Position numbers and translations under genes: made by a program | Notes under the pieces: generated by a model | Told to the model about the DNA's origin: nothing | Seen by the model: only the letters and a program-made list of their open reading frames with translations | Databases searched by the model: none | Part shown: one piece after another, positions 2,631 through 30,806 of the stretch | Numbering within the stretch: position 1 is the stretch's first letter | Layout of the letters: each line of letters begins with the position of its first letter | Source: a virus | Taxonomy: Duplodnaviria; Heunggongvirae; Uroviricota; Caudoviricetes | Direction: 5' to 3' (one strand) | DNA length: 51,946 bases | Virus record (IMG/VR): IMGVR_UViG_3300044259_000172

Positions 2631-3563
2631 ATGGCAACATCATTCGCAGACCTTAAGAAGAATTCAAAGAATTCAGTGTCTGATCTTCAAAAAAATCTAG
2701 AAGCTTCACAAAAGAAATCCTTTAAAAAGGATGAACGTTATTGGGTTCCAACAAAGGATGATAACGGAAATGCTTTGGCTATCATTCGTTTCCTTCCTGC
2801 CCCACAAGGTGAAGATCTTCCTTATGTAACATATTTTGATCATTCATTCAAGGTCGAAAATAGATATTACATTAATCGTTCTAGAACATCACTCGGTAAA
2901 GATGAACGAGATCCTGTTGCAGAAAGCAATAAAGCTCTTTGGGATTCAGGTGATGAGATGAAGAAGGATTTGGCTAGAGAACGTAAGCGTAAACTCCATT
3001 ACGTATCTAATATCTTAGTAATCAAAGACACAGGAAATCCAGAAAATAATGGTAAAGTATTTCTTTATGATTATGGCATGAAGATTTTTGGTAAAATTAA
3101 AGATCAGGCTCAACCAGATCTTGAAGAAGATACTCCATATGATATCTTTAATCTATTTGAAGGAAAGAATTTCCGTCTGAAGATTAAGAAACAGGGGGAA
3201 TTTCCTAATTATGATGATTCCGCATTTCAAGATGTTTCCGCACTCGCAGGTGGAGATGAAGAAAAGATGGAAGAAATTTGGAATAAGTGTTATTCACTAG
3301 AAGCAGAAATTGCTGCTGATAAGTTCCTTCCTTATGAAGAATTGAAAAAGAAGCTTGATTATGTTCTCTATGGCAATTCATCTTCTAAGTCAGCAGAAGA
3401 AAAGATTAATGAAGATCTTGGAAGTAATGAAGATTTAGAAATTGACTTGATTGATAAGAATATTTCTAAGGAAAAAACTTCAAAGAAATCTAAGGTAGAT
3501 GAAGATGAAGACTTCACTTTAGATATGTCAGATTTCAAACTTGATGATGACATTCCATTTTAA
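2631..3563 (+). CDS. 32: ssDNA-binding protein gp32
   Basis: DERYW.P.KD..GNA.AIIRFLP, YVSNILVIKD, GKNFRLKIKK and an acidic tail. Confidence 0.95.
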   Translation: MATSFADLKKNSKNSVSDLQKNLEASQKKSFKKDERYWVPTKDDNGNALAIIRFLPAPQGEDLPYVTYFDHSFKVENRYYINRSRTSLGKDERDPVAESNKALWDSGDEMKKDLARERKRKLHYVSNILVIKDTGNPENNGKVFLYDYGMKIFGKIKDQAQPDLEEDTPYDIFNLFEGKNFRLKIKKQGEFPNYDDSAFQDVSALAGGDEEKMEEIWNKCYSLEAEIAADKFLPYEELKKKLDYVLYGNSSSKSAEEKINEDLGSNEDLEIDLIDKNISKEKTSKKSKVDEDEDFTLDMSDFKLDDDIPF

Positions 3564-3565
3564 TG

Positions 3566-3591
3566 AAAAAGGGAGCTTTTAGCTCCCTTTT
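3566..3591. terminator. Bidirectional rho-independent terminator
   Basis: AAAAA-GGGAGC-TTTTA-GCTCCC-TTTT between convergent genes. Confidence 0.9.
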
Positions 3592-3594
3592 ATT

Positions 3595-5538
3595 TTATCT
3601 AAAACTTCCCAATCCTGAATTTATAACTTGATTAGTTCCAAATGCTGAATTATCATTATTTCTAGTTGTAGGAAGATTTCCAATAGAAATTTTTGCAGTA
3701 TTATTAGAATTTGAATTTACTACCGAATTATTAGTTCTAGAATAATCTGAATTTGAAGAAGATGTATTAGTATTATTCACTACTGAATTATCTACTTTTT
3801 GGTCATAAATTCTGTCTATAGCTTCATTCTTATTTTTAATTTGATCTGATGAAATTTTATCTAAGTAATCATTCAATTTCTTAGTATCTTCATCAAGTTT
3901 AGGCTTATCTCCGAAATCTGGAGTTTTATAAACACTGACCGGAACATTCACTTCTGCCCCATTAGGTAGAGTCGCTTTCATAGTCTTTGTGTCTATTACA
4001 TCTTTATCTTCTACTTTTTTTCCTGTCCAATAATCAAAGGAAAATAAATTTTTAACAAAATCCTTTGCCTTATCATATAATCCATCAACAGCATCTTTGA
4101 ATATTTTCTTCATAGAATCAAATGAGAATGAAGCTAATTCTTTAGCAGAATCTGTTAACCAATTAACAAATCCCATAACCCAATCTCTCATTTCACCTAC
4201 TTTACCGGTAAATGCTATCCATTTTTCTCCTAAATAATCTGAAATCCCTTGGATAAATTTTGCAATTTTTTCTCCTCCGAACCATCCTAAAATTGCTCCG
4301 AAAGCCCCTCCGACAAGTCCTCCTACTAAAGTTCCGATAACAGGAACTACTGATCCAATACCTGCTCCAATAAGAGCCCATTTTCCTCCATTTTTAATAG
4401 TTCCCCAAACTCCTTTATCAAGTCCTCCTAATAATCCTCCTACAAATCCTGCAATTTTTGAAACCCCCCAAGCATCAGCTGAAAACCATCCTGCTATACC
4501 ATCTTTAATTGCCATATAAAGGCCGGTAGCTAATCCTAAAATAGGTATAGATTTTGCAATTGTAGAACTTACACTAGAAAGTATTCCAACTATTGTTGTG
4601 GTTATAGTTCCTAATATTCCTCTTATTCCTAATAAAAGAGGAAGCCCGAAAGATGACTTTTCCTTCTTTGTGTCAGGAATTTTATCATCTTTTTCTACTT
4701 TTATAGAATTAAGAAAATCTTCAGAATTTTCCTTTTTAATTTTGCTTTTCTTTAAAGATGAGTCTTCCTTAAAGTATTTTGTAATAGTCTTAGAAATGGT
4801 ATCTAAAGATTTTGAAATTTTTTGTAAAACTGGTATTTGTTTTTTTTCAGTCGACAAATCCTTTTCAACTATTAAAGACTTTGGAAATTCTAATTTTGGA
4901 GAATTATTTGGAGCTATTAAATTATTCACTCCCAAAGGTGTAAGAGAAGTTTCTAATTTAGACTTTTCTGAAACATCTTCAGGTTTAGATTTTTCTCCCA
5001 TATCAGGAATATGAATTTCTGGGTGTTCAATTTTTTCAGAAGAATTGGATTCTTCCTTTTCTTCTTCCTTTTCTTTGGGCTCTACATACTTTTCATTTGT
5101 AAGAATTCTCTCAATGATTGTTGTTCTTATTTGTCCTTTTAATTCTTTTTCTTTATCAGAAACAGATTTACCAAAGATTCTATCTCTAATAGAATCTTTG
5201 AGAGTATCAGTCAAATTGTCAAGAAGCTTATCTCTATTTCTGATAGCAAAGTCTAATTTACCCAAAATCCCTGTTCTAAGAGTTTCGTCAAATAATCTTT
5301 TCTGTTCTTTCAGAAATTCTTCGTTTTTCTTCTTTTCTTCTTTTTCTCTTTTCTCTTCTAATTTTTTTTCTTCAGCAAGTCTTTTATCAGCAGCCTTTTG
5401 ATCTTTACTTTTCTGCTTAAGATCTTCTTCATGGCGCTTGTTTTCCTCAGCCCTTTGGGCTTCCAATTGATCTGGAGAAATATAAACCTCAGTAGCTTCT
5501 GGGTTTCTTTTGATTATTGGGAAAGGAAATATTGCCAT
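3595..5538 (-). CDS. Tape-measure/baseplate-hub-like tail protein
   Basis: 647 aa with a charged helical N-terminus and Gly-rich hydrophobic stretches (GLLGG...GAGIGSVVPVIGTLVGG); follows gp26/gp51 as in other T4-like phages. Confidence 0.6.
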   Translation of the reverse strand: MAIFPFPIIKRNPEATEVYISPDQLEAQRAEENKRHEEDLKQKSKDQKAADKRLAEEKKLEEKREKEEKKKNEEFLKEQKRLFDETLRTGILGKLDFAIRNRDKLLDNLTDTLKDSIRDRIFGKSVSDKEKELKGQIRTTIIERILTNEKYVEPKEKEEEKEESNSSEKIEHPEIHIPDMGEKSKPEDVSEKSKLETSLTPLGVNNLIAPNNSPKLEFPKSLIVEKDLSTEKKQIPVLQKISKSLDTISKTITKYFKEDSSLKKSKIKKENSEDFLNSIKVEKDDKIPDTKKEKSSFGLPLLLGIRGILGTITTTIVGILSSVSSTIAKSIPILGLATGLYMAIKDGIAGWFSADAWGVSKIAGFVGGLLGGLDKGVWGTIKNGGKWALIGAGIGSVVPVIGTLVGGLVGGAFGAILGWFGGEKIAKFIQGISDYLGEKWIAFTGKVGEMRDWVMGFVNWLTDSAKELASFSFDSMKKIFKDAVDGLYDKAKDFVKNLFSFDYWTGKKVEDKDVIDTKTMKATLPNGAEVNVPVSVYKTPDFGDKPKLDEDTKKLNDYLDKISSDQIKNKNEAIDRIYDQKVDNSVVNNTNTSSSNSDYSRTNNSVVNSNSNNTAKISIGNLPTTRNNDNSAFGTNQVINSGLGSFR

Positions 5539-23676: not shown

Positions 23677-23752
23677 TGGTGGGTCCTGAAAGATTCAAAC
23701 TTTCGTCTTACCGGTTAAGAGCCGGATGTAATAGTCACTATACGAAAGACCC
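23677..23752 (-). tRNA. tRNA-Lys(CTT)
   Basis: Cloverleaf, loop CT-CTT-AA, encoded CCA. Confidence 0.85.
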
Positions 23753-23756
23753 AAAA

Positions 23757-23966
23757 TCGTGCCACCTGATAGGATTCGAACCAATCTTTTAATTGAGAAT
23801 AATAACTAGAAGCTGTTGCTAGGTATTCGAGGAGGTAATACGTGGTTAATTCCACACAGCAACTTTCCCTCCATCCATCTACCTTCTTACGCTTGTTACT
23901 AATCTAAATTAAAGCCTCTTTAAGTATCCATACATATTCTTGGCCAAGAATTTAGAGGCAGGCGAC
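23757..23966 (-). ncRNA. 210-nt tRNA-ended structured RNA
   Basis: Acceptor GTCGCCT/AGGTGGC, T arm with TTCGAAT, long central helix and pseudoknotted core; 3' end ACGA. Confidence 0.6.
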
Positions 23967-23975
23967 ATATAAAAT

Positions 23976-24233
23976 TTAATGAATATAAGCTAAAATAAGA
24001 TCGCGAACAATCTTTGGGGTTACAGCGAAATTGAATCTAATTTCATCCGATTTATAACCAAGTTGAGACATTGGAGTCCCACAACAATCACAAACCCATT
24101 CAATTTTTTCACCGACTTCAGTTTTCTTAAAATTGATAGGTTGTTTAAGATTTCCACCTTTAATATGAACATTTGTTTTACCAGCAGTCCATTGATATGT
24201 TTTATCTTCTACTTCAATATTTCTATAACTCAT
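23976..24233 (-). CDS. Hypothetical protein inside the tRNA array
   Basis: ORF with AAGGA RBS; CDCCG motif. Confidence 0.6.
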   Translation of the reverse strand: MSYRNIEVEDKTYQWTAGKTNVHIKGGNLKQPINFKKTEVGEKIEWVCDCCGTPMSQLGYKSDEIRFNFAVTPKIVRDLILAYIH

Positions 24234-24270
24234 TTCAAGATCCTTATTTAGGAGATTGTAAAAATTTATT

Positions 24271-24371
24271 TGATGGAGCCATAGAGGAATTGAACCTCTT
24301 CACCCGCCGCTAACATCCTCCAACTACATTGCCCTTTCTGACAGGCGGTTTCAGCGTAGTCGTCTGACCCC
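24271..24371 (-). ncRNA. 101-nt tmRNA-TLD-like RNA with alanine identity
   Basis: GGGGTCA/TGGCTCC acceptor with G3.U70 and A73; AGAGG-TTCAATT-CCTCT T arm; no D or anticodon arm. Confidence 0.6.
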
Positions 24372-24380
24372 ATTAAAATA

Positions 24381-24456
24381 TGGTGTTCCTGGTCGGATTC
24401 GAACCGACACTTGATGGTTTCTAAAACCATTGCCTCTACCATTGGGCTACAAGAAC
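24381..24456 (-). tRNA. tRNA-Leu(TAG), short variable loop
   Basis: ATGGT-TTTAGAA-ACCAT, CCA. Confidence 0.85.
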
Positions 24457-24464
24457 AATTTATA

Positions 24465-24558
24465 TGGAGGAAGAAGTTGGTCTCGATCCAAAGACGTAAG
24501 TCGCTTTACGCCCGATCAGTTTAGCAAACTGTCTTGAGTCCTACTCAATTCATCTTCC
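24465..24558 (-). tRNA. tRNA-Ser(GCT)
   Basis: Loop TTGCTAA, long variable arm, CCA. Confidence 0.8.
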
Positions 24559-24564
24559 TTAGAA

Positions 24565-24640
24565 TGGCTCAGAGTGAAGGGTTCGAACCTTCAATTTCCT
24601 GGATCAAAGCCAGGTGCCTTACCAATTTGGCCAACTCTGA
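24565..24640 (-). tRNA. tRNA-Gln(TTG)
   Basis: CCTGG-CTTTGAT-CCAGG, CCA. Confidence 0.9.
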
Positions 24641-24648
24641 ATATTATT

Positions 24649-24724
24649 TGGTGCGCATGGCTGGAATTGAACCAACATCTTATCAGTTATGAGCTGAGGG
24701 CATTGACCATTATGCTACACGCGC
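24649..24724 (-). tRNA. tRNA(CAT), elongator Met or Ile2
   Basis: Loop CTCATAA, G1-C72, CCA. Confidence 0.85.
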
Positions 24725-24732
24725 TTTGATGT

Positions 24733-24933
24733 TTAAATCTTTTCCAGACAATGTTCTGTCATTTGAAGTGCTTTATGTAAGAAACCATCAATCATAATTG
24801 GGGTTTCTAATTGAACGATAAAGTGGCACATTTCAGGAAATTTAAATGCAATTCCTAAAACTTTACAAGTTTGCCCATCCATTTCAGAATTCGTAGAATG
24901 AATCCTAACAATTTCATCACATTCAAATTTCAT
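24733..24933 (-). CDS. Hypothetical protein inside the tRNA array
   Basis: ORF with AAGGA RBS. Confidence 0.55.
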   Translation of the reverse strand: MKFECDEIVRIHSTNSEMDGQTCKVLGIAFKFPEMCHFIVQLETPIMIDGFLHKALQMTEHCLEKI

Positions 24934-24957
24934 TATACGATTTTCCTTTTATAAGAT

Positions 24958-25034
24958 TGGTGCGTCTGACTGGGCTCGAACCAGTGACCTTCGGGTTAGA
25001 AATCCGGTGCTCTATCCAACTGAGCTACAGACGC
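24958..25034 (-). tRNA. tRNA-Arg(TCT)
   Basis: Loop TTTCTAA, canonical D and T arms, CCA. Confidence 0.85.
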
Positions 25035-25037
25035 AAA

Positions 25038-25141
25038 TAAAGTGATTAGCCTTCCAGGCCGGATTCGAACCGACATACTCCAATTACTCGATTAACGACG
25101 CATTAGAAGTGCGTTGAGATACTGGAAGGCTAATCACTTTA
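25038..25141 (-). ncRNA. D-armless Arg(TCT) tRNA-like RNA inside a perfect 20-bp inverted repeat
   Basis: TAAAGTGATTAGCCTTCCAG repeat arms at 25038-25057 and 25122-25141; ACGCA-CTTCTAA-TGCGT; GTCGG-TTCGAAT-CCGGC. Confidence 0.6.
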
Positions 25142-25150
25142 AATTATTCT

Positions 25151-25372
25151 TTATTCATCAAAGGTGATAAAACCTTTTTCCTTAAGTTGGGACAAGAGCA
25201 TTCTTACCATATAAGAGGTATCACCAAGATCATTATCTTGATCGCAATTATAAAATATTTCAACTGCTGCAACTTTTAACAATTCAGGAAGAGCCATCTG
25301 AGAATGGAGAACAATAGGCTCTCCTAAAAGCTTAATCAGTTTAAGCTGAATATTTTCCTTTGTAATTTTCAT
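25151..25372 (-). CDS. Hypothetical early protein
   Basis: Follows the promoter at 25406-25433. Confidence 0.55.
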   Translation of the reverse strand: MKITKENIQLKLIKLLGEPIVLHSQMALPELLKVAAVEIFYNCDQDNDLGDTSYMVRMLLSQLKEKGFITFDE

Positions 25373-25448
25373 TTTGAATTACTCTCTCTATCAGTTGAGA
25401 GTTAGATACTATCACAATCTGAGAGAATGTAAATAGGTAATTTTTATT

Positions 25449-25625
25449 TTATTTAGAAAGATTACCAATTATTTCTGAACAAGAAAGGCAAAAATAAATA
25501 TGTTGACCTCTATTACGAAAAGAATAGGTAGCAATTACTTCTGTTCCACTATTCATTTCTTTATCGCAACCTCGGCAATAAGCAGTACGTAGAATTTTTC
25601 TACGATTTATTTCTCTATCTGTCAT
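25449..25625 (-). CDS. Small Cys-rich (CxxC...CxxC) protein
   Basis: Start re-set to MTDREINRRK; CRGC and CLSC. Confidence 0.55.
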   Translation of the reverse strand: MTDREINRRKILRTAYCRGCDKEMNSGTEVIATYSFRNRGQHIYFCLSCSEIIGNLSK

Positions 25626-25655
25626 ATTAATCTTTCTAATTTTATATTTTAAAAC

Positions 25656-25731
25656 TGGTGGGTGCGGTGGGAATCGAACCCACGTAACTCTGCTTAAAAG
25701 GCAGATCCCTAAACCGCTCGGACACACACCC
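25656..25731 (-). tRNA. tRNA-Lys(TTT)
   Basis: TCTGC-CTTTTAA-GCAGA, CCA. Confidence 0.9.
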
Positions 25732-25778
25732 ATTTTGGATTTCCTTGGTTTAGCCTATCAACTTAATAATAGGATTTA

Positions 25779-25875
25779 AAATACATGATTGCAAACGGCG
25801 TATCCACATCGAAGTTTCTATATATAACCTAACGCCGTATAACGGAAATATAGACTTGAGCTTCATCATGTATTT
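25779..25875 (-). ncRNA. Structured (pseudoknotted) spacer RNA candidate
   Basis: 11-bp closing stem AAATACATGAT/ATCATGTATTT; TCTATAT/ATATAGA crossed by ACGGCGT/ACGCCGT. Confidence 0.45.
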
Positions 25876-25878
25876 AAT

Positions 25879-25954
25879 TGGTGTCTCCCCTCGGAATCAA
25901 ACCGAGTCCCTTTGTTCTTCAGACAAATGTGCGCATCAGCTACACCAGAGAGAC
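25879..25954 (-). tRNA. tRNA-Phe(GAA)
   Basis: TTTGT-CTGAAGA-ACAAA, CCA. Confidence 0.85.
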
Positions 25955-25961
25955 ATTAAAA

Positions 25962-26035
25962 TGGCGGACCATACGGGTATCGATCCCGTGATTTCACTTA
26001 GACAGAGTGACATGTTACCATTACATCAATGATCC
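25962..26035 (-). tRNA. tRNA-Asp(GTC)
   Basis: TCACT-CTGTCTA-AGTGA, G73-CCA. Confidence 0.85.
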
Positions 26036-26673
26036 AATAATTTTCTTCCTCTACTCCAACCTTCAGGAATGGGACCTTTAATTTTTTTAACTTCAATTCC
26101 ATTATTGATCCAAATAGAACCAAATTGAGAATTATTTTTTCCTATATATTTCCCTTTATGTGAATTAGACATTTTTAATTTTGTTTCCTCAGAATGGCTT
26201 TTACCCGTCCAATCAGGAGCTTTTAATTTACCTTCTTTATGAAGGATTTTATTACTTTCAGATAATCTAAGCGATGATCTTTTTCTAAATTCTAGATCTT
26301 TAGCTAATATTTTATTAGTTTTCATAGCAGCTTTTGATGATCTTAATTTATGAGATTCAGATCCATCATTAAGATAACCCCATCCACCTTTACCTCCTGG
26401 GCAAAGATTATAAACATCATTCCTTTTGAGGAATTCTTCGTTCACAATCTCAGCTTCTTTTTCATTCATTTCCTTTTCGGAAGAGCATTCAAACAAGATT
26501 TCTCTTTTAAAATTCTCAATTCCAAATTTAGAAATAGCTCTTTTAAGAAGCTTCCCAGAACCCATATAACCATCTTCTTTATTAGAAGTCATATGCTTTC
26601 CGATATAAATTTTACCATTTAGCAAGTTGGTAGTCTTGTAAATTAGGAAAAATTGATTTGATAAACCTGTCAT
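26026..26673 (-). CDS. GIY-YIG homing endonuclease (Seg-like) with NUMOD3
   Basis: IYKTTNLLNGKIYIGKH, YMGSG, YNL..GG.GG, HSEETKLKMS; start re-set to MTGLSN, 5 nt after TATAAATA (26679-26686). Confidence 0.9.
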   Translation of the reverse strand: MTGLSNQFFLIYKTTNLLNGKIYIGKHMTSNKEDGYMGSGKLLKRAISKFGIENFKREILFECSSEKEMNEKEAEIVNEEFLKRNDVYNLCPGGKGGWGYLNDGSESHKLRSSKAAMKTNKILAKDLEFRKRSSLRLSESNKILHKEGKLKAPDWTGKSHSEETKLKMSNSHKGKYIGKNNSQFGSIWINNGIEVKKIKGPIPEGWSRGRKLLDH

Positions 26674-26702
26674 ACAGATATTTATACAAATCAATTTTTC
26701 GA

Positions 26703-26775
26703 TGAGCGGGTGAAGGGAATCAAACCCTCTTCTTCGGCTTGGAAGGCCGAGGCACAATCAATATACCACACCAGC
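26703..26775 (-). tRNA. tRNA-Gly(TCC), CCA not fully encoded
   Basis: TCGGC-CTTCCAA-GCCGA, U73. Confidence 0.8.
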
Positions 26776-26840
26776 AAAATAAAGGAAAAACTAATAAGGT
26801 GAACTTGGCAAACAAATATTCACTAACATTAGTTTTTCGA

Positions 26841-26911
26841 TGTTGCGGCGCCCGGAGTCGAACCGGAAAAAATTGGCTTATGAGACCAATCGGGAACCCT
26901 TCCTCACCGCA
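26841..26911 (-). tRNA. tRNA-Met(CAT) with a shortened D arm, CCA not fully encoded
   Basis: Loop CTCATAA, TGCGGTG/CGCCGCA acceptor, canonical T arm. Confidence 0.7.
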
Positions 26912-26920
26912 ATATTTTAT

Positions 26921-26946
26921 AAGGAGAACTCTAAACATTCTCAACT
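26921..26946. repeat. 26-bp direct repeat copy 1 (copy 2 at 29615-29640)
   Basis: AAGGAGAACTCTAAACATTCTCAACT is identical at both sites. Confidence 0.85.
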
Positions 26947-26950
26947 AAAA

Positions 26951-27045
26951 TGGCCGGAAGCTGGTAGTGTCGATCTCCAAACGTGGTACTAGCACGTTCC
27001 ATCAGATTTCAAGTCTGAGTCAAGGGCCGCCTTGATTAACTTCCG
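26951..27045 (-). tRNA. tRNA-Ser(TGA)
   Basis: TCAGA-CTTGAAA-TCTGA, long variable arm, G73-CCA. Confidence 0.85.
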
Positions 27046-27060
27046 TAAACTTTGTTAATT

Positions 27061-27137
27061 TGGTAGGAACAATTGGATTTACACCAATACCTTCTGGTTT
27101 ACAACGCCAGATGAACTGTACCTTATTCGATATTCCT
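27061..27137 (-). tRNA. Atypical tRNA with a 9-nt anticodon loop (CGTTGTAAA; Thr-TGT or Tyr-GTA register)
   Basis: TCTGG/CCAGA stem, AGGAATA/TGTTCCT acceptor, CCA. Confidence 0.6.
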
Positions 27138-27140
27138 AAA

Positions 27141-27226
27141 TGGTGGGCAAAGAGAGACTCGAACTCTCACGTCTCAAAGGACACTTGGTTCTTAACCAAG
27201 CAAGGCTACCATTACATCATTTGCCC
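27141..27226 (-). tRNA. tRNA-Leu(AAG), class II
   Basis: CTTGG-TTAAGAA-CCAAG, long variable arm, A73-CCA. Confidence 0.75.
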
Positions 27227-27230
27227 ATGA

Positions 27231-27374
27231 ACTTTATGAGTTTCATCATTTTGCTCTATAGGGCACGACTCCTAGTTAAACGAACATACAAAATGAATTA
27301 CTCATTAAAGGTAAATAAGGGATGGATCCGTCGATCAATTAGCCATGCGGACATGCTACACACTTCTTATTTAC
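27231..27374 (-). ncRNA. Two-domain structured spacer RNA candidate
   Basis: GTAAATAAG/CTTATTTAC, TAGC-ATG/CAT-GGCTA, CATTTTG/CAAAATG and ATGAG/CTCAT stems. Confidence 0.45.
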
Positions 27375-27384
27375 ACTTAATATT

Positions 27385-27476
27385 TGGTACCTGTAGTCGG
27401 ATTCGAACCGACTCGAGAACGCTAATCTGGCGCTGAAAGACTTATAAGATCTCCCTGTGTACCTACACCTACAGGC
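27385..27476 (-). tRNA. Non-canonical class II tRNA with anticodon TAT (Ile codon ATA)
   Basis: Loop CTTATAA, G8, 4-bp D stem with AGGT loop, up to 7-bp anticodon stem, long V arm, A73-CCA. Confidence 0.7.
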
Positions 27477-27480
27477 AAAA

Positions 27481-27556
27481 TGGTATCCATGGTCGGATTC
27501 GAACCGACACTTTGGAGATTTTAAGTCTCCTGCCTCTGCCATTGGGCTACATGGAC
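27481..27556 (-). tRNA. tRNA-Leu(TAA), short variable loop
   Basis: GGAGA-CTTAAAA-TCTCC, CCA. Confidence 0.85.
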
Positions 27557-27565
27557 ATATTATAT

Positions 27566-27641
27566 TGGACCAAATTAATAGATTTGAACTATTCCTTTCT
27601 GTTCCACAAACAGACGTGCTAACCGCTAACACTAAACTTGG
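27566..27641 (-). tRNA. tRNA-His(GTG) without encoded G-1, U73
   Basis: TCTGT-TTGTGGA-ACAGA, CCA. Confidence 0.8.
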
Positions 27642-27648
27642 ATAGATT

Positions 27649-27723
27649 TGGCTGCTGAGATAGGAGTTGCACCTATAATCACCGCGTTAACGGCAGCTGC
27701 TTTACTAATTAGCACACTCAGCA
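27649..27723 (-). tRNA. Asn-bodied tRNA with an out-of-register anticodon loop (CGTTAAC)
   Basis: T1-A72 and G73 as in tRNA-Asn; GTT falls at positions 33-35 in the best stem. Confidence 0.55.
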
Positions 27724-27731
27724 AAATTGAA

Positions 27732-27809
27732 TGGTACGCCTGACCGGATTTGAACCGGCGAATGGTCTCCTTGAAAGGGAGGTGGCTTAGACCGCTTGCC
27801 AACAGACGT
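27732..27809 (-). tRNA. tRNA-Glu(TTC)
   Basis: CCTCC-CTTTCAA-GGAGA, CCA. Confidence 0.9.
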
Positions 27810-27814
27810 ATAAA

Positions 27815-27904
27815 TGGTGGGAGATGGGCTGAATCGAACACCTTGCCGCAAGGACGTGGGCTACAACCACGCGCCAGGACCACCTAGCCTTACTTGCATC
27901 TCCC
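27815..27904 (-). tRNA. Sec-like-fold tRNA with anticodon GTA (Tyr)
   Basis: 8-bp acceptor GGGAGATG/CATCTCCC, 6-bp D stem with TGGT loop, 6-bp anticodon stem, long V arm, A73-CCA. Confidence 0.65.
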
Positions 27905-27969
27905 TTAAATTGGGTTAAACTTTTTTACCAAGAGTCTAAAAACTTGGAAACCTCTAATTAAGGGGTAAA

Positions 27970-28044
27970 TGGTACGTATAAATGGATTTGAACCATTGAC
28001 CACTACCTTATCGGGGTAGCGCTCTACCACTGAGCTATATACGT
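27970..28044 (-). tRNA. tRNA-Ile(GAT)
   Basis: CTACC-CCGATAA-GGTAG, CCA. Confidence 0.85.
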
Positions 28045-28059
28045 AAAATTAGATGTATT

Positions 28060-28145
28060 TGGCTGGGATAGCAGGTATCGATCCTGCCTGGATAAATCCA
28101 ACCTCTGGTTAACAGCCAGGTGCCTTACCTCTCGGCCATATCCCA
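28060..28145 (-). tRNA. tRNA-Asn(GTT) with a long variable arm
   Basis: CCTGG-CTGTTAA-CCAGA, extra TGGA-TTTA-TCCA arm, G73-CCA. Confidence 0.8.
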
Positions 28146-28306
28146 ACAAAATACATCGTCATAATAATTAAACATCACATTTTAGTTTATAATATTAGGA
28201 TTGTGACTTCCCTTTTGAGGATAAGTACCTAATTCTCTTTTACGATTTTCTCTATTCAATTTTGAAAGAACTGAGTGACTTGTTATTGTCTCTCTTGATT
28301 ATGAAT

Positions 28307-28337
28307 TATTTATATCATACATTTGGTTTGTTGTACA
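28307..28337 (-). promoter_or_regulatory. Composite early/late promoter (TGTACA-N17-TATAAATA)
   Basis: TGTACA at 28332-28337 and TATAAATA at 28307-28314; the same design occurs at 32133-32163. Confidence 0.7.
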
Positions 28338-28346
28338 TAACTTTTT

Positions 28347-28667
28347 TCAAAAAATTCTAATTTTTTTAGGTTTTTTGTAAAAAGTAACAGATTCGATAGA
28401 ATGAATTCCATATTCTCCACAAGGACAATATTCTTGAAATGTTTCAATCAAATCAATATTAGCTAGATAATTATCTGGCCAATTATTTCTAAATTCGTGA
28501 AATGGAACCTTTCCTTTATGAGCTTTAATTAATTCAATAGCAGGTTTAATGATTTCTTCGATTTCTCGTAATGAAATGTCTCTAATAGAATGCACATAAT
28601 CAGCATCATTAGTATCACCTTCAATTACAATTTCATAATCTTTAGGTTCATTACTAAAATTTTCCAT
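28347..28667 (-). CDS. Hypothetical protein inside the tRNA array
   Basis: IEGDTNDADYV...CPCGEYGIHSIES. Confidence 0.65.
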   Translation of the reverse strand: MENFSNEPKDYEIVIEGDTNDADYVHSIRDISLREIEEIIKPAIELIKAHKGKVPFHEFRNNWPDNYLANIDLIETFQEYCPCGEYGIHSIESVTFYKKPKKIRIF

Positions 28668-28879
28668 TAAAATTTTCCAATTCTATATTCTAGAATTTTC
28701 TTGTATTCGTTCATAGCATGATATTGATCATAAAGTATTGAAGTCTCTTCTTCTGAACATTTTCTCTCAGAGGAAGGCAAAGAAAGAAATTTTAATAAAC
28801 TTTCAATTTTTGTTGTCAAATCAGAATGTTCATTCAAAACTCGCAATTCATGAGGTTTAGGTAAATTCATTTCTATCAA
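28667..28879 (-). CDS. Small coiled-coil hypothetical protein (crAss001_48-like pattern)
   Basis: RV..E..DL..KIE.L.KFL...L..QY.AM..Y..ILE.RI. Confidence 0.6.
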   Translation of the reverse strand: MIEMNLPKPHELRVLNEHSDLTTKIESLLKFLSLPSSERKCSEEETSILYDQYHAMNEYKKILEYRIGKF

Positions 28880-29036
28880 TTTCCTTTATTAGAGGTCTCA
28901 TTTGAGAGATATCTTTGTAAAATTTCTTTTTAGATTTTATATCAAGTTCTTCATCTAAAGTATTAATGTAATTTAAAATTCTATCAAGAGTTTCCCATTG
29001 ACCTCTTATGTAATAAGTCAATTCTGAATCATTCAT
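28857..29036 (-). CDS. Hypothetical protein
   Basis: Start re-set to MNDSELTYYIRGQWETL, after tRNA-Trp. Confidence 0.55.
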   Translation of the reverse strand: MNDSELTYYIRGQWETLDRILNYINTLDEELDIKSKKKFYKDISQMRPLIKEIDRNEFT

Positions 29037-29052
29037 AAAATTTATCCTATAA

Positions 29053-29127
29053 TGGCGCCAGCTGTAGGAATCGAACCTACTACACAAGGTTTTGGAGACC
29101 TGTATGTACCATAACACTCAACTGGCA
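29053..29127 (-). tRNA. tRNA-Trp(CCA)
   Basis: Loop CTCCAAA, G73-CCA. Confidence 0.85.
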
Positions 29128-29132
29128 ATTTA

Positions 29133-29227
29133 TGGTAAGCCGAGCAGGATTTACACCTGCAAAGATTTCTGATCAAGAAATCACCCGCTCTTACTGCGGG
29201 CGCGTTTATTAATTTCGCCACCGACTT
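29133..29227 (-). tRNA. Degenerate class II Leu-bodied tRNA (loop AG-TAA-GA, D loop lacks GG)
   Basis: CCCGC/GCGGG stem, long V arm, A73-CCA. Confidence 0.55.
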
Positions 29228-29237
29228 ATAAAATATA

Positions 29238-29311
29238 TGGTAGGTCTCAATAGAATCGAACTATTGTCTACTCCGTGTAAAAGAGGTATTTTACCATTAA
29301 ACTAGAGACCC
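29238..29311 (-). tRNA. tRNA-Val(TAC)
   Basis: Loop TTTACAC, CCA. Confidence 0.85.
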
Positions 29312-29316
29312 ATAAA

Positions 29317-29392
29317 TGGAGCCGTTAGACGGGTTCGAACCGACGACAACCTGATTACAAATCAGGTGCTCTTCCAACTGAGCTATAACGGC
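29317..29392 (-). tRNA. tRNA-Thr(TGT)
   Basis: CCTGA-TTTGTAA-TCAGG, CCA. Confidence 0.9.
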
Positions 29393-29434
29393 ATTTAATA
29401 ATTATCAAAGAACAGAAGAATAAAATCTTCGAAA

Positions 29435-29511
29435 TGGAGAACTAGATCAGATTTTAACTGATGAATAATGGTTTTGCAGACCACCCCGTTAGAACACTCC
29501 GGCACTAGTTC
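29435..29511 (-). tRNA. tRNA-Cys(GCA)
   Basis: GTGGT-CTGCAAA-ACCAT, U73-CCA. Confidence 0.8.
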
Positions 29512-29652
29512 ATTAAATCTTGTATATAGCAGACTGGACTTTAACCACTTTAATTTGATATTTCTGCGCAGGTCTTTCAAATTATCTTACTTAAACGTAA
29601 GGCTATACCTCTGAAAGGAGAACTCTAAACATTCTCAACTTATATATGCAAA

Positions 29653-29735
29653 TATTGACAACGATTTCCGAGGATTCGAACCTCACCTCTCGCCATTCCG
29701 GGCCAGTGTGCTTCCACGTTACACTACATCAATCT
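29653..29735 (-). pseudogene. Degenerate tRNA-like sequence
   Basis: Intact D arm (GTGT/GCAC) and T arm (TGAGG-TTCGAAT-CCTCG); broken anticodon stem; about 8-nt insert before the acceptor 3' strand; no CCA. Confidence 0.45.
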
Positions 29736-29871
29736 CATCTTTATAGAAATCCTGCAAGATTTTTAAAAGATGTGTCTCAAATGAGCCAATAAGAATTGCA
29801 GTCCTTATTCCTCATTTCGAATTCAGTTTGAATGTTTCCACCTGATAGCCCACATACAAAGCTCTTCATTC

Positions 29872-29947
29872 TGGTGGACGATATCGGGTTCGAACCGATG
29901 ACTTCCTGATTGCAGGTCAGGTACTCTCCCTACTGAGTTAATCGCCC
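29872..29947 (-). tRNA. tRNA-Ala(TGC)
   Basis: CCTGA-CCTGCAA-TCAGG, G3.U70, CCA. Confidence 0.9.
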
Positions 29948-29994
29948 ATTATTTGTTGTACTAAATTTGTTTTATTATTTATAACTCAAATTTA

Positions 29995-30576
29995 TTAAAT
30001 GCGACCTTTATACCATCCATCTGGCATATTATCAATATCTTTTTTAATCTTTTTATTTTCAATTCCATTAGTTATCCACATAGAACCAAATTGGGAATTT
30101 TTAGAACCTTGATTCTTTGATTTTCTCATTTTTTGTTTAGTTTCTTCAGAATGTTTTTTACCATTCCAATTATAAGTATTCTTCCAACTATATTCTTCCC
30201 AAATTTTTCTAGATGTTCCTCCTCGACTACAAAGATCTTTTATTTTTTCATTGTCAAGATCTTTGAAAAAGCCTCTTCTTGGATTTCCAAATTCATTAAT
30301 ATAATCGAAATTACCTTCACCTCCAGGTGATAAATTATATGTTCTTTCAGAAACAAGAATGATTTCTCTTTCTTTAGAAATCATATCCGATTTATTATCA
30401 AATATAAAAAGAATTTCTTTTTTAAAGTTTTCAAACCCGTATTTCTTAATTGCTTGTTTTATAAGTTTACCAGAACCCATATAACCATCATCAAGATTTT
30501 TAGTTTTATGCATTCCAATATAATATTTGGAATTTATTAAATTAGTAATCTTATATACGGTATAATACATCATCAA
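29995..30576 (-). CDS. GIY-YIG homing endonuclease (Seg-like) with NUMOD3, second copy
   Basis: VYKITNLINSKYYIGMH, YMGSG, YNLSPGGEG, HSEETKQKM. Confidence 0.9.
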   Translation of the reverse strand: MMMYYTVYKITNLINSKYYIGMHKTKNLDDGYMGSGKLIKQAIKKYGFENFKKEILFIFDNKSDMISKEREIILVSERTYNLSPGGEGNFDYINEFGNPRRGFFKDLDNEKIKDLCSRGGTSRKIWEEYSWKNTYNWNGKKHSEETKQKMRKSKNQGSKNSQFGSMWITNGIENKKIKKDIDNMPDGWYKGRI

Positions 30577-30620
30577 TCTCTAAAATATAAAGTCATTATA
30601 GACTATTTATATTTTAGAGA
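30577..30620 (-). promoter_or_regulatory. RBS-sequestering hairpin containing late promoter TATAAATA
   Basis: 15-bp arms at 30577-30591 and 30606-30620; TATAAATA at 30604-30611 lies in the 5' arm. Confidence 0.8.
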
Positions 30621-30627
30621 AATACAG

Positions 30628-30704
30628 TGGTCAGGGTAGCTGGATTTGAACCAGCGTTGCCACCTTCCAAGGGTGACCGAATGACCAGGCTTTCACATAC
30701 CCTG
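30628..30704 (-). tRNA. tRNA-Pro(TGG)
   Basis: TCACC-CTTGGAA-GGTGG, CCA. Confidence 0.9.
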
Positions 30705-30730
30705 ACTAAATACAACTCTATAAATTATTA

Positions 30731-30806
30731 TGGAGCACTTACAAGGATTCGAACCTTGATCCTGACCTTCGTAAAGTCTCGCTCTTTCCAGTTGAGCTAT
30801 AAATGC
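30731..30806 (-). tRNA. tRNA-Arg(ACG)
   Basis: Loop TTACGAA, canonical D and T arms, CCA. Confidence 0.85.

Follow-up and report, generated by a model that had tools for sequence, protein, structure and literature searches.

The stretch of DNA analysed here (the window) comprises 51,946 nucleotides (nt) of the IMG/VR virus record IMGVR_UViG_3300044259_000172, a complete 154-kb virus genome with terminal repeats, of which it forms a part and whose sequence comes from sediment metagenomes. The tail sheath protein is 39% identical to those of cultured T4-type phages and 64% identical to that of the nearest IMG/VR contig (G001); on such sequence likeness, the phage is a divergent T4-like one. Its minus strand carries an island of transfer RNA (tRNA) genes in which an earlier note had seen a translation-takeover or anti-defence module, made up of functional tRNAs and a set of tRNA-shaped mimics. 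The island as a whole and the four tRNA-shaped units, here called A to D, are laid out as follows:

23677-30806, minus strand: whole tRNA island, with 30 tRNA genes, four tRNA-shaped units, two homing endonuclease genes and seven small open reading frames (ORFs).
25038-25141, minus strand: unit C (core 25047-25128), with a perfect closing duplex of 20 base pairs (bp), a CUUCUAA hairpin and a T arm.
24271-24371, minus strand: unit B, with a 7-bp acceptor stem, GGGGUCA/UGGCUCC, that contains G3.U70; ends in AUCA.
23757-23966, minus strand: unit A, a cloverleaf-like fold of 210 nt that ends in ACGA, 4 nt before tRNA-Lys(CUU).
29660-29753, minus strand: unit D, with the T arm GAGG-UUCGAAU-CCUC, a 7-bp closing stem, an irregular interior and no CCA.

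The tRNA complement of the island is as large as the earlier note had read it. ARAGORN called 27 tRNAs between 23677 and 30806, all on the minus strand, and 25 tRNA units reached the curated Rfam threshold; three further tRNA genes emerged from Rfam or from ARAGORN under relaxed settings, at 27061-27137 (46 bits), 26951-27045 (Ser, UGA) and 27815-27904 (Tyr, GUA). The anticodons of the resulting 30 genes cover all 20 amino acids; for asparagine the sole gene is of class II-like type and 86 nt long, and for tyrosine the sole gene has an 8-bp acceptor stem. A CCA end is encoded in 28 of these genes. The exceptions are tRNA-Met (26842-26914) and tRNA-Gly (26704-26775), which indicates that the phage already depends on CCA addition. 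The long gaps in the array are coding sequence, as judged by ORF and profile searches. In a loose search for a T arm with a closing stem, the array strand (7.3 kb) gave 26 matches, whereas the rest of the genome (147 kb) gave 12 with its two strands taken together; this excess argues that the extra units did not arise by chance.

All four tRNA-shaped units are indeed present in the sequence, but they do not make up one set of mimics, as unit C belongs to a distinct family. None of the four has a conventional D arm. An acceptor stem of about 7 bp that abuts a T arm with a UUCRANY loop is found in A, B and C, but not in D. In addition, no 5-bp stem bearing an anticodon loop of 7 nt occurs in A, B or D, and these three gave no match to the Rfam model RF00005 even at E <= 10; unit C scores 32.2 bits on this model, formally passing its gathering threshold of 29. 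The units had also been described as spaced like tRNAs, which holds for A, B and C, each 3-9 nt from a tRNA, and fails for D, whose two neighbours are 118 and 148 nt away.

Unit C reached a folding z score of -7.7 relative to dinucleotide shuffles. Its 7-bp acceptor stem is prolonged by 13 further perfect pairs, its 3' end reads G-CUA and not G-CCA, and the canonical tRNA-Arg(UCU) gene of the island (24958-25034, minus strand) starts 3 nt downstream of its end. A blastn search with C among 50,697 phage records retrieved 156 records of cultured phages, with 80-89% identity over a core of 62-66 nt. The carriers include T5-like Klebsiella phages, Mydovirus, phi92-like phages, Asteriusvirus, the jumbo phages PBECO4 and 7t3, Felixounavirus, a Kuravirus (1-6af) and a Vibrio phage. 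A motif scan of IMG/VR yielded 56 stretches with members of the same family, while none of 5,426 complete Escherichia coli genomes contained one. Existing annotation gives these genes as tRNA-OTHER, tRNA-Undet, tRNA-TERM or tRNA-Arg-TCT, or, in phi92, PBECO4 and many others, passes over them.

The 43 unique cores collected in this way share a structure that is well supported by covariation. In an alignment of 44 sequences, 94.7% of the cells in the proposed pairs are paired, compared with 65.3% in shuffles and at most 47% with slid partners; in 17 of the 21 pairs both partners vary, the covariation score is 0.76 as against 0.19, and the helices are 95-100% paired. The three long helices are also predicted by RNAalifold alone, which does not predict an additional 3-bp helix between columns 11-13 and 40-42. 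This helix is paired in all 44 sequences and shows UA/AU/GC and CG/UA/GC swaps. One of its strands comes after the linker UAU and the other lies behind the anticodon hairpin plus a CGUUAANN stretch, and a D-loop-like UAAUUGGAGUAU segment takes the position of the variable region. Read from this alignment, the equivalent of the D stem surrounds the anticodon hairpin in the C family, its 3' strand being placed behind the hairpin. Unit C forms all helices of the family, i.e. the acceptor stem, the anticodon hairpin, the T arm and the enclosing 3-bp helix, and shares with its relatives the 7-bp acceptor, the UAUC linker, the 3-bp helix, the CUUCUAA loop, CGUUAA, GUAAUUGGAGUAU and the T arm. Two other pairing schemes were discarded: a pair between columns 14 and 39 is unsupported, being paired in 23% of the sequences, and inspection of the alignment showed single changes without compensation that contradict a conventional anticodon arm within the 23-nt segment past the hairpin.

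A covariance model built from this alignment reached still more divergent members, in locus L001 (63.9 bits, anticodon CCU), one of 21 distant loci found through the 106-amino acid ORF of the array, and in contig G001 (44.7 bits, ACG; 43.5 bits, UCU). We found no description of a C-type fold or of extended-stem phage tRNAs in Rfam or in the literature, the latter searched outside subscription journals. To our knowledge, the topology is distinct from those of the described classes of non-canonical tRNAs. D-armless mitochondrial tRNAs, 8/4 and 9/3 allo-tRNAs and tRNA-Sec all work as adaptors without conforming to the 7/5 cloverleaf, and the C family, too, does without a conventional D arm; unlike in those molecules, however, its D region is not merely deleted, as a covarying helix encloses the anticodon hairpin.

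The anticodon loop of the family is CUUCUAA (anticodon UCU) in nearly all members, with CCU in three. Across very different sequences, the anticodon thus shifts only among those for arginine (UCU, CCU, ACG). Moreover, an NCCA end is found in 34 of the 43 unique members, in which the discriminator is G, A or, in one case, C. C-bearing loci with 15-28 tRNAs contain tRNA-Arg(ACG) and, by ARAGORN, no canonical tRNA-Arg(UCU); the sole array in this comparison that does have a canonical UCU tRNA (L147) carries a C-family member with CCU. The fully annotated array of Felixounavirus REP10 likewise has tRNA-Arg(ACG) but no canonical tRNA-Arg(UCU), and the ordinary tRNA calls of G001 include only Arg(CCU) for arginine. 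A paper on Kuravirus gives its single tRNA as tRNA-Arg-TCT (PMC13417854), a gene that may be the family member of 1-6af. Taken at the sequence level, C-family RNAs are most likely genuine arginine tRNAs with a rewired core, and not decoys.

A minority of the family departs from this pattern at the ends of the molecule. In 9 of the 43 unique members, which come from unrelated phages, the acceptor stem is extended by 13-16 bp of unrelated sequence and no CCA is present, while all others are extended by 0-1 bp. The bimodal lengths and the covariation along the whole stem show that the extension is selected. Most cultured C-family genes end in NCCA; unit C, in contrast, belongs to this minor, extended-stem, CCA-less subtype, together with eight other unique members. 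It is also unusual in having a canonical tRNA-Arg(UCU) as its neighbour, a gene that is missing from most arrays with a C-family member. In three arrays with 22-23 tRNAs (L124, L133 and L138), an extended-stem member is the only UCU carrier, so that the extended form may still mature into a tRNA. Conversely, the position of unit C directly beside a normal tRNA-Arg(UCU) makes a non-decoding role possible for the copy in the window. By its fold and its family, unit C is clearly not a decaying gene.

Two phages show HNH endonucleases at C-family genes. In Klebsiella phage K18PH07C1 (L109, 1501-1546), the gene is cut off after 46 nt at an HNH endonuclease region, and in Roth37 (L102, 3085-3594), an HNH endonuclease gene begins 9 nt past it. 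Homing endonucleases seem to target or accompany the C-family gene.

We consider it probable that this island of a divergent T4-like phage provides a full decoding set in which C represents a tRNA-Arg-type family, with A, B and D as by-products. On this account, the island would be transcribed from the minus strand as multi-gene precursors, from which units with an acceptor/T-arm helix would be excised by host RNase P and 3' processing enzymes; CCA would be added wherever it is not encoded, and the 30 tRNAs would furnish the full decoding set. Unit C would require extra processing before charging, either double-strand cleavage or an RNase Z-type cut, followed by CCA addition. There is precedent in T4, whose tRNAs without CCA mature through the action of host RNase BN and the CCA-adding enzyme. 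As for A, B and D, they would be released from the precursors as stable by-products, in the manner of RNAs C and D of T4.

Several points weigh against this account. A perfect 20-bp duplex is a poor substrate for RNase P, and the canonical tRNA-Arg(UCU) next door would make C redundant here if decoding were its only task. The C family has no normal D arm and hence lacks the usual position of A20, a determinant for arginyl-tRNA synthetase (ArgRS). The tRNA-Arg role rests on the anticodon restriction, the CCA ends and the filling of the UCU slot; moreover, most invariant columns of the 44-sequence alignment were fixed by the pattern used to search IMG/VR, so that independent evidence for the invariance of single-stranded positions comes from the 10 BLAST-derived sequences only. 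As for the putative by-products, unit A folds better than 196 of 200 shuffles (z = -2.4), with its closing stem in the minimum-energy fold, and the missing homologues of A, B and D are weak evidence, since the relatives are distant (64% in the sheath, 76-78% in the YkuK-like protein) and their arrays were compared only in part. Transcription, processing and charging are all inferred.

The chief result concerns unit C, through which this phage is connected with a tRNA-like family that is widespread, covaries and is specific to arginine, and that has two maturation forms and a core apparently not described before. As a rule, only tRNA finders are applied to phage tRNA arrays, and genes that fail as cloverleaves are ignored or called "tRNA-OTHER". 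Should C-family RNAs prove to be aminoacylated and used in translation, the range of RNA shapes accepted by ArgRS, EF-Tu and the ribosome would be extended, and the family, if it is what it seems, would be a natural compact scaffold for tRNA engineering. The CCA-ended and stem-locked forms offer a contrast that can be tested in cultured phages.

Units A, B and D stand apart from this family. Unit A consists of a closing stem of 7-8 bp, a 45-nt arm, a rod of about 125 nt and a T arm with one mismatch. Unit B has a perfect T arm, AGAGG-UUCAAUU-CCUCU, and a 65-nt interior that is not of cloverleaf type, and its folding z score is -0.3. Unit D, the weakest of the four, has a T stem of 4-5 bp and a shifted closing stem (z = +0.2) and is called only at a relaxed ARAGORN threshold. 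We detected no homologue of A, B or D by blastn in the 50,697 phage records, nor by blastn-short or nhmmer in 1.2 Mb of phage loci rich in tRNA arrays. Whole-record DNA searches of the IMG/VR relatives G001-G007 matched only tRNAs. Relatives in Logan/ENA (76-78% identity in the YkuK-like protein), which share tRNA-Tyr, tRNA-Gly, tRNA-His and others with the island, contained none of the three units by blastn, and nothing like them occurred in the 21 loci reached through the 106-amino acid ORF, 10 of which have arrays. A further metagenome scan gave only relatives at no more than 61% identity. Similarity of A, B and D to the tRNAs of their own array is confined to the T arm, and a recent duplication as their origin was rejected on this ground.

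The closest parallel is found in T4. Both phages have tRNA genes on a single strand with only a few bases between them, a GIY-YIG gene (segB in T4) within the cluster and units resembling stable RNAs in addition to the tRNAs. The T4 record holds eight tRNAs, with rnaD and rnaC 1 and 6 nt after the preceding gene, directly past tRNA-Arg. The fold of rnaC comprises a T arm, CCGGG-UUCGAAU-CCCGG, a closing stem and two long inserted hairpins, with no CCA (z = -4.6), and the gene is at least 96% identical in about 680 of 748 matching phage records, RB69 among them, all 748 being of Tequatrovirus type. Units A and B resemble it in their position in the cluster, in a T arm and closing stem with inserted hairpins and in the absence of an encoded CCA; by analogy of architecture, not by demonstrable homology, they may be counted as of the rnaC kind. 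The differences are equally plain. No sequence similarity of A, B or D to the T4 RNAs was seen (no covariance model was used), and the window is not among the rnaC matches. T4 has 8 tRNAs and this phage 30; the T4 RNAs are grouped at the end of the cluster, whereas the units here are scattered; and rnaC is highly conserved among relatives, while A, B and D have no known ones. The function of T4 stable RNAs C and D (species 1 and 2) is still unknown (PMC9697503), and the orphan units A, B and D add to this 50-year-old puzzle.

The strongest competitor of the by-product account sees decaying tRNA genes in A, B and D, and perhaps also in the C copy of this phage, with only the T arm and the acceptor stem still recognisable. 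We regard this as possible, though it is not the reading we would choose. It agrees with the lack of A, B and D homologues in every search and with the restriction of their array-tRNA similarity to the T arm, as well as with the finding that B and D are no stabler than shuffles and that the CCA of A and B is off by one base. In a near-identical strain, unit A has 3 substitutions in 188 nt, compared with 3 in about 1,600 nt elsewhere outside an exchange in tRNA-Leu (p ~0.02), a raised density that would suit decay; the strain contigs cover B and D only partly and were not used to compare these units. However, all three changes are A-to-G and turn A-U into G-U pairs, hence they are compatible with pairing, an outcome expected by chance in about one case in five. 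The fold of unit A given above likewise speaks for constraint, 400 nt of dead sequence would be unexpected in a tightly packed phage genome, the analogous T4 rnaC is conserved, and C is clearly not decaying. The undetected conservation of A, B and D leans towards decaying genes, a weak test with relatives at no more than about 76% protein identity. It is also the outcome under which the earlier note would have given up its mimics in favour of pseudogenes, although only distant relatives were at hand. On present evidence, A, B and D are indistinguishable from decaying genes, and some or all of them may be such; judged from sequence comparison, they are most likely lineage-specific tRNA-derived units with no demonstrable conserved role.

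The idea put forward in the earlier note, that the island is a translation-takeover or anti-defence module with A to D as deliberate tRNA mimics, for example uncharged decoys for anticodon nucleases, appears unlikely to us. It would explain why three units with near-consensus T arms carry a CCA altered by one base (CGA in A, UCA in B, CUA in C) and why C keeps the invariant Arg(UCU) loop next to a real tRNA-Arg(UCU), and the recurrence of its extended duplex in nine unrelated phages bespeaks selection. Phage tRNAs with variant anticodon loops escape host tRNA nucleases, and the triple stem swap that we observed in tRNA-Leu(UAA) is of the type proposed to evade tRNA-targeting defences (PMC10264068); in T5, a phage tRNA, tRNA-Lys, neutralises PARIS (PMC11464382). 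This phage is like those cases in its large tRNA set, its irregular anticodon loops and stems and the strain swap in tRNA-Leu(UAA). In contrast, the nuclease-escape tRNAs are chargeable, differ by point changes and were demonstrated experimentally, whereas here a link with a nuclease could be made for no unit, and an anticodon arm is wholly missing from A, B and D. In the C family, anticodons vary only within arginine and ends are mostly NCCA, and C replaces, rather than accompanies, canonical tRNA-Arg(UCU) in most large arrays, the extended-stem members being sole UCU carriers in the three named above. A, B and D have neither relatives nor an anticodon-like loop, and no link to a nuclease or a defence system was found. 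The observation behind the earlier note is largely right; its interpretation of the whole as anti-defence mimics is not supported, as nothing ties the island to anticodon nucleases.

Alternatively, the units could serve as processing punctuation, handles at ORF-tRNA borders at which RNase P would separate small mRNAs and leave them with protected ends. RNase P requires only an acceptor/T-arm helix, and the positions are suggestive: B lies between the Met-Gln-Ser-Leu run and an 85-amino acid ORF, A between this ORF and tRNA-Lys, and C between a 73-amino acid ORF and tRNA-Arg. Yet other ORF-tRNA borders of the island have no unit (e.g. 28146-28346 and 24725-24733), members of the C family elsewhere often lie inside pure tRNA runs or far from tRNAs, and D is not at an ORF border. 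We therefore deem this explanation improbable.

A bolder reading would make the C-type RNAs an undescribed class of tRNAs with a relocated D-stem strand and UUGGAG segment, existing in chargeable NCCA and "stem-locked" CCA-less forms. The locked copy in the window would then be a non-decoding anticodon-arm mimic, serving as a decoy or regulator for some factor that recognises tRNA-Arg(UCU), and RNase P would release A, B and D as additional mimics peculiar to this lineage. Taken with all its parts, we hold this to be decidedly doubtful.

The weakest proposal, very improbable and largely refuted by the sequence, is that B, and possibly A, is the remnant or a miniature of a phage transfer-messenger RNA (tmRNA) with a tRNA-like domain of alanine identity able to bind SmpB: although B has a GGGG start, G3.U70, A73, a UUCAAUU T loop and neither D nor anticodon arm, and although G001 and another array-bearing phage encode permuted tmRNAs beside their arrays, neither the tmRNA mode of ARAGORN nor the Rfam models tmRNA, alpha_tmRNA and tmRNA_permuted find anything at A or B, B has no tag frame and only 65 nt between its acceptor strands, and local alignments of A and B to two phage tmRNAs are no better than those of shuffles. 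The tmRNAs in question, at 3407-3795 of locus L099 for G001 and at 18568-19005 of L004, are true permuted ones (119 bits with Rfam) that adjoin tRNA arrays. ARAGORN found no tmRNA in the whole genome of the present phage, in which a weak tmRNA_permuted match (24.6 bits, threshold 47) at 25553-25685 overlaps an ORF and tRNA-Lys. A reading as Y RNA and Ro was discarded as well: YrlA matches reached 24 and 21.7 bits, the threshold being 69, and the phage genome gave no match to TROVE (PF05731), with positive controls.

Along the minus strand, from the upstream end, the tRNA genes of the island are:

30731-30806, minus strand: tRNA-Arg(ACG), CCA encoded; ARAGORN and Rfam.
30628-30704, minus strand: tRNA-Pro(UGG), CCA encoded; ARAGORN and Rfam.
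29872-29947, minus strand: tRNA-Ala(UGC); ARAGORN and Rfam.
29053-29511, minus strand: run of tRNA-Cys(GCA), tRNA-Thr(UGU), tRNA-Val(UAC), a 95-nt class II tRNA and tRNA-Trp(CCA); ARAGORN and Rfam.
29133-29227, minus strand: the 95-nt class II tRNA of this run, loop AGUAAGA; missed by Rfam.
27970-28145, minus strand: 86-nt class II-like tRNA with a GUU (Asn) anticodon, and tRNA-Ile(GAU); ARAGORN and Rfam.
27815-27904, minus strand: tRNA-Tyr(GUA) with an 8-bp acceptor stem and a long variable arm; Rfam; conserved in related phages.
27385-27809, minus strand: run of tRNA-Glu(UUC), a unit with a CGUUAAC loop ("UUA" in ARAGORN), tRNA-His(GUG), tRNA-Leu(UAA) and a 92-nt class II tRNA(UAU).
26951-27226, minus strand: tRNA-Leu(AAG), a 77-nt tRNA (27061-27137) with an irregular anticodon loop and tRNA-Ser(UGA) (26951-27045) with an 8-bp acceptor stem.
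26704-26914, minus strand: tRNA-Met(CAU) and tRNA-Gly(UCC), the only two ordinary tRNAs without CCA; each is followed by AUCGAAAAA.
25656-26035, minus strand: tRNA-Asp(GUC), tRNA-Phe(GAA), a 147-nt spacer and tRNA-Lys(UUU); ARAGORN.
24958-25034, minus strand: canonical tRNA-Arg(UCU), downstream of unit C as described.
24381-24933, minus strand: an ORF of 66 amino acids (24733-24933), then tRNA-Met(CAU), tRNA-Gln(UUG), tRNA-Ser(GCU) and tRNA-Leu(UAG).
23677-23752, minus strand: tRNA-Lys(CUU), the last gene of the island; ARAGORN and Rfam.

Some of the odd-looking genes among them are evidently maintained. For the 92-nt class II tRNA(UAU), G003 holds a counterpart whose variable arm is the same and in which compensatory changes affect the acceptor, D, anticodon and T stems, and the tRNA-Tyr with the 8-bp acceptor was found again in two closer relatives, in which the acceptor stem covaries. 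By this comparison, both odd tRNAs are under selection. Covariation in relatives, which the earlier note had suggested as a check, is thus strong for the C family and is seen as compensatory changes in these two tRNAs. Both tRNA-Tyr and tRNA-Ser(UGA), each with an 8-bp acceptor, also give scores on the tRNA-Sec model.

In the near-identical strain (2018 run), tRNA-Leu(UAA) (27481-27556) shows six substitutions within an otherwise identical 222-nt contig. They amount to three pair swaps in the anticodon stem, GGAGA/UCUCC becoming AGGCA/UGCCU, and all six are compensatory; gene conversion or selection on the anticodon stem could account for them. Three tRNAs with CCA ends have anticodon loops that are out of register, namely 27649-27723 (CGUUAAC), 27061-27137 (CGUUGUAAA or GUUGUAA) and 29133-29227 (AGUAAGA, with G33). 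ARAGORN reads one of these as an ochre suppressor; the ORFs of the window are intact under the standard code. Outside the window, at about 138,070-138,100 of the genome on the minus strand, a T-arm and acceptor unit that ends in G-CCA and is not called by ARAGORN adjoins an isolated tRNA-Lys(UUU) (138166-138242).

The remaining genes of the island code for proteins:

29995-30570, minus strand: GIY-YIG/NUMOD3 homing endonuclease gene (phrog_314, E 3e-41).
28347-29036, minus strand: three small ORFs of 59 amino acids, 66 amino acids (crAss001_48-like) and 106 amino acids (phrog_8428).
26026-26673, minus strand: second GIY-YIG/NUMOD3 homing endonuclease gene (phrog_314, E 4e-47).
25151-25625, minus strand: two small ORFs of 58 amino acids (zinc-ribbon-like, weak match to DUF2197) and 73 amino acids (no known family).
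23976-24233, minus strand: ORF of 85 amino acids between units B and A.

Both endonuclease genes have a perfect inverted repeat at their start, one of 15 nt (30577-30620) ahead of the start codon of the gene at 29995-30570 and one of 14 nt (26647-26700) that spans the start codon of the second gene. In the near-identical strain, position 29962 is joined to 30630 with two other bases in between, so that 29963-30629 is absent. On these low-depth contigs, in which two other joints with sides shorter than 30 nt were disregarded, the endonuclease gene at 29995-30570 is a presence/absence polymorphism, as expected for a mobile homing endonuclease. Of 21 other phage loci with a homologue of the 106-amino acid phrog_8428 protein, 10 have it inside a tRNA array. 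The 85-amino acid ORF has no relative in IMG/VR and matches only itself among 5.8 billion proteins; the second contig in which it occurs is 100% identical.

The spacers that the earlier note had described as strongly paired fold little or no better than dinucleotide shuffles, with z scores of -1.2 (25779), -2.3 (27231), -0.4 (29525) and -0.4 (29754). The 147-nt spacer at 25779 has an 11-bp terminal stem and sigma-70-like hexamers just before tRNA-Lys. A direct repeat of 31 nt (94% identical) occurs at 26921-26951 and 29615-29645 and contains a GAGAA-N9-UUCUC hairpin; one copy begins at the CCA of tRNA-Ser(UGA) and the other lies 15 nt past unit D. The copy at 26921-26951 also holds a sigma-70-like TTGAGA-17-TATAAA ahead of tRNA-Met. 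An inverted repeat of 27 nt (85% complementary) places one arm in the spacer upstream of unit D (29759-29785) and the other 835 nt downstream on the same transcript strand, inside the 59-amino acid ORF (28897-28923).

Among the neighbouring genes to which the earlier note had tentatively assigned a helper role, those for YqeY, the YkuK-like protein (PF04308) and the metallophosphoesterase are real, while the "ART-like" ORF has a PARP/Tpt1 match below threshold (E ~0.004). Yet in some related phages the three real genes, that for the YkuK-like protein in particular, do not adjoin a tRNA array. In one related phage, but apparently not in the present one, a 475-amino acid DUF2828 protein is encoded inside the tRNA array (L176, 3323-4750), and a 471-amino acid "RNA-binding protein" is encoded directly ahead of the array of Felixounavirus REP10 (L193, 573-1988); such proteins may be a recurrent partner of phage tRNA arrays.

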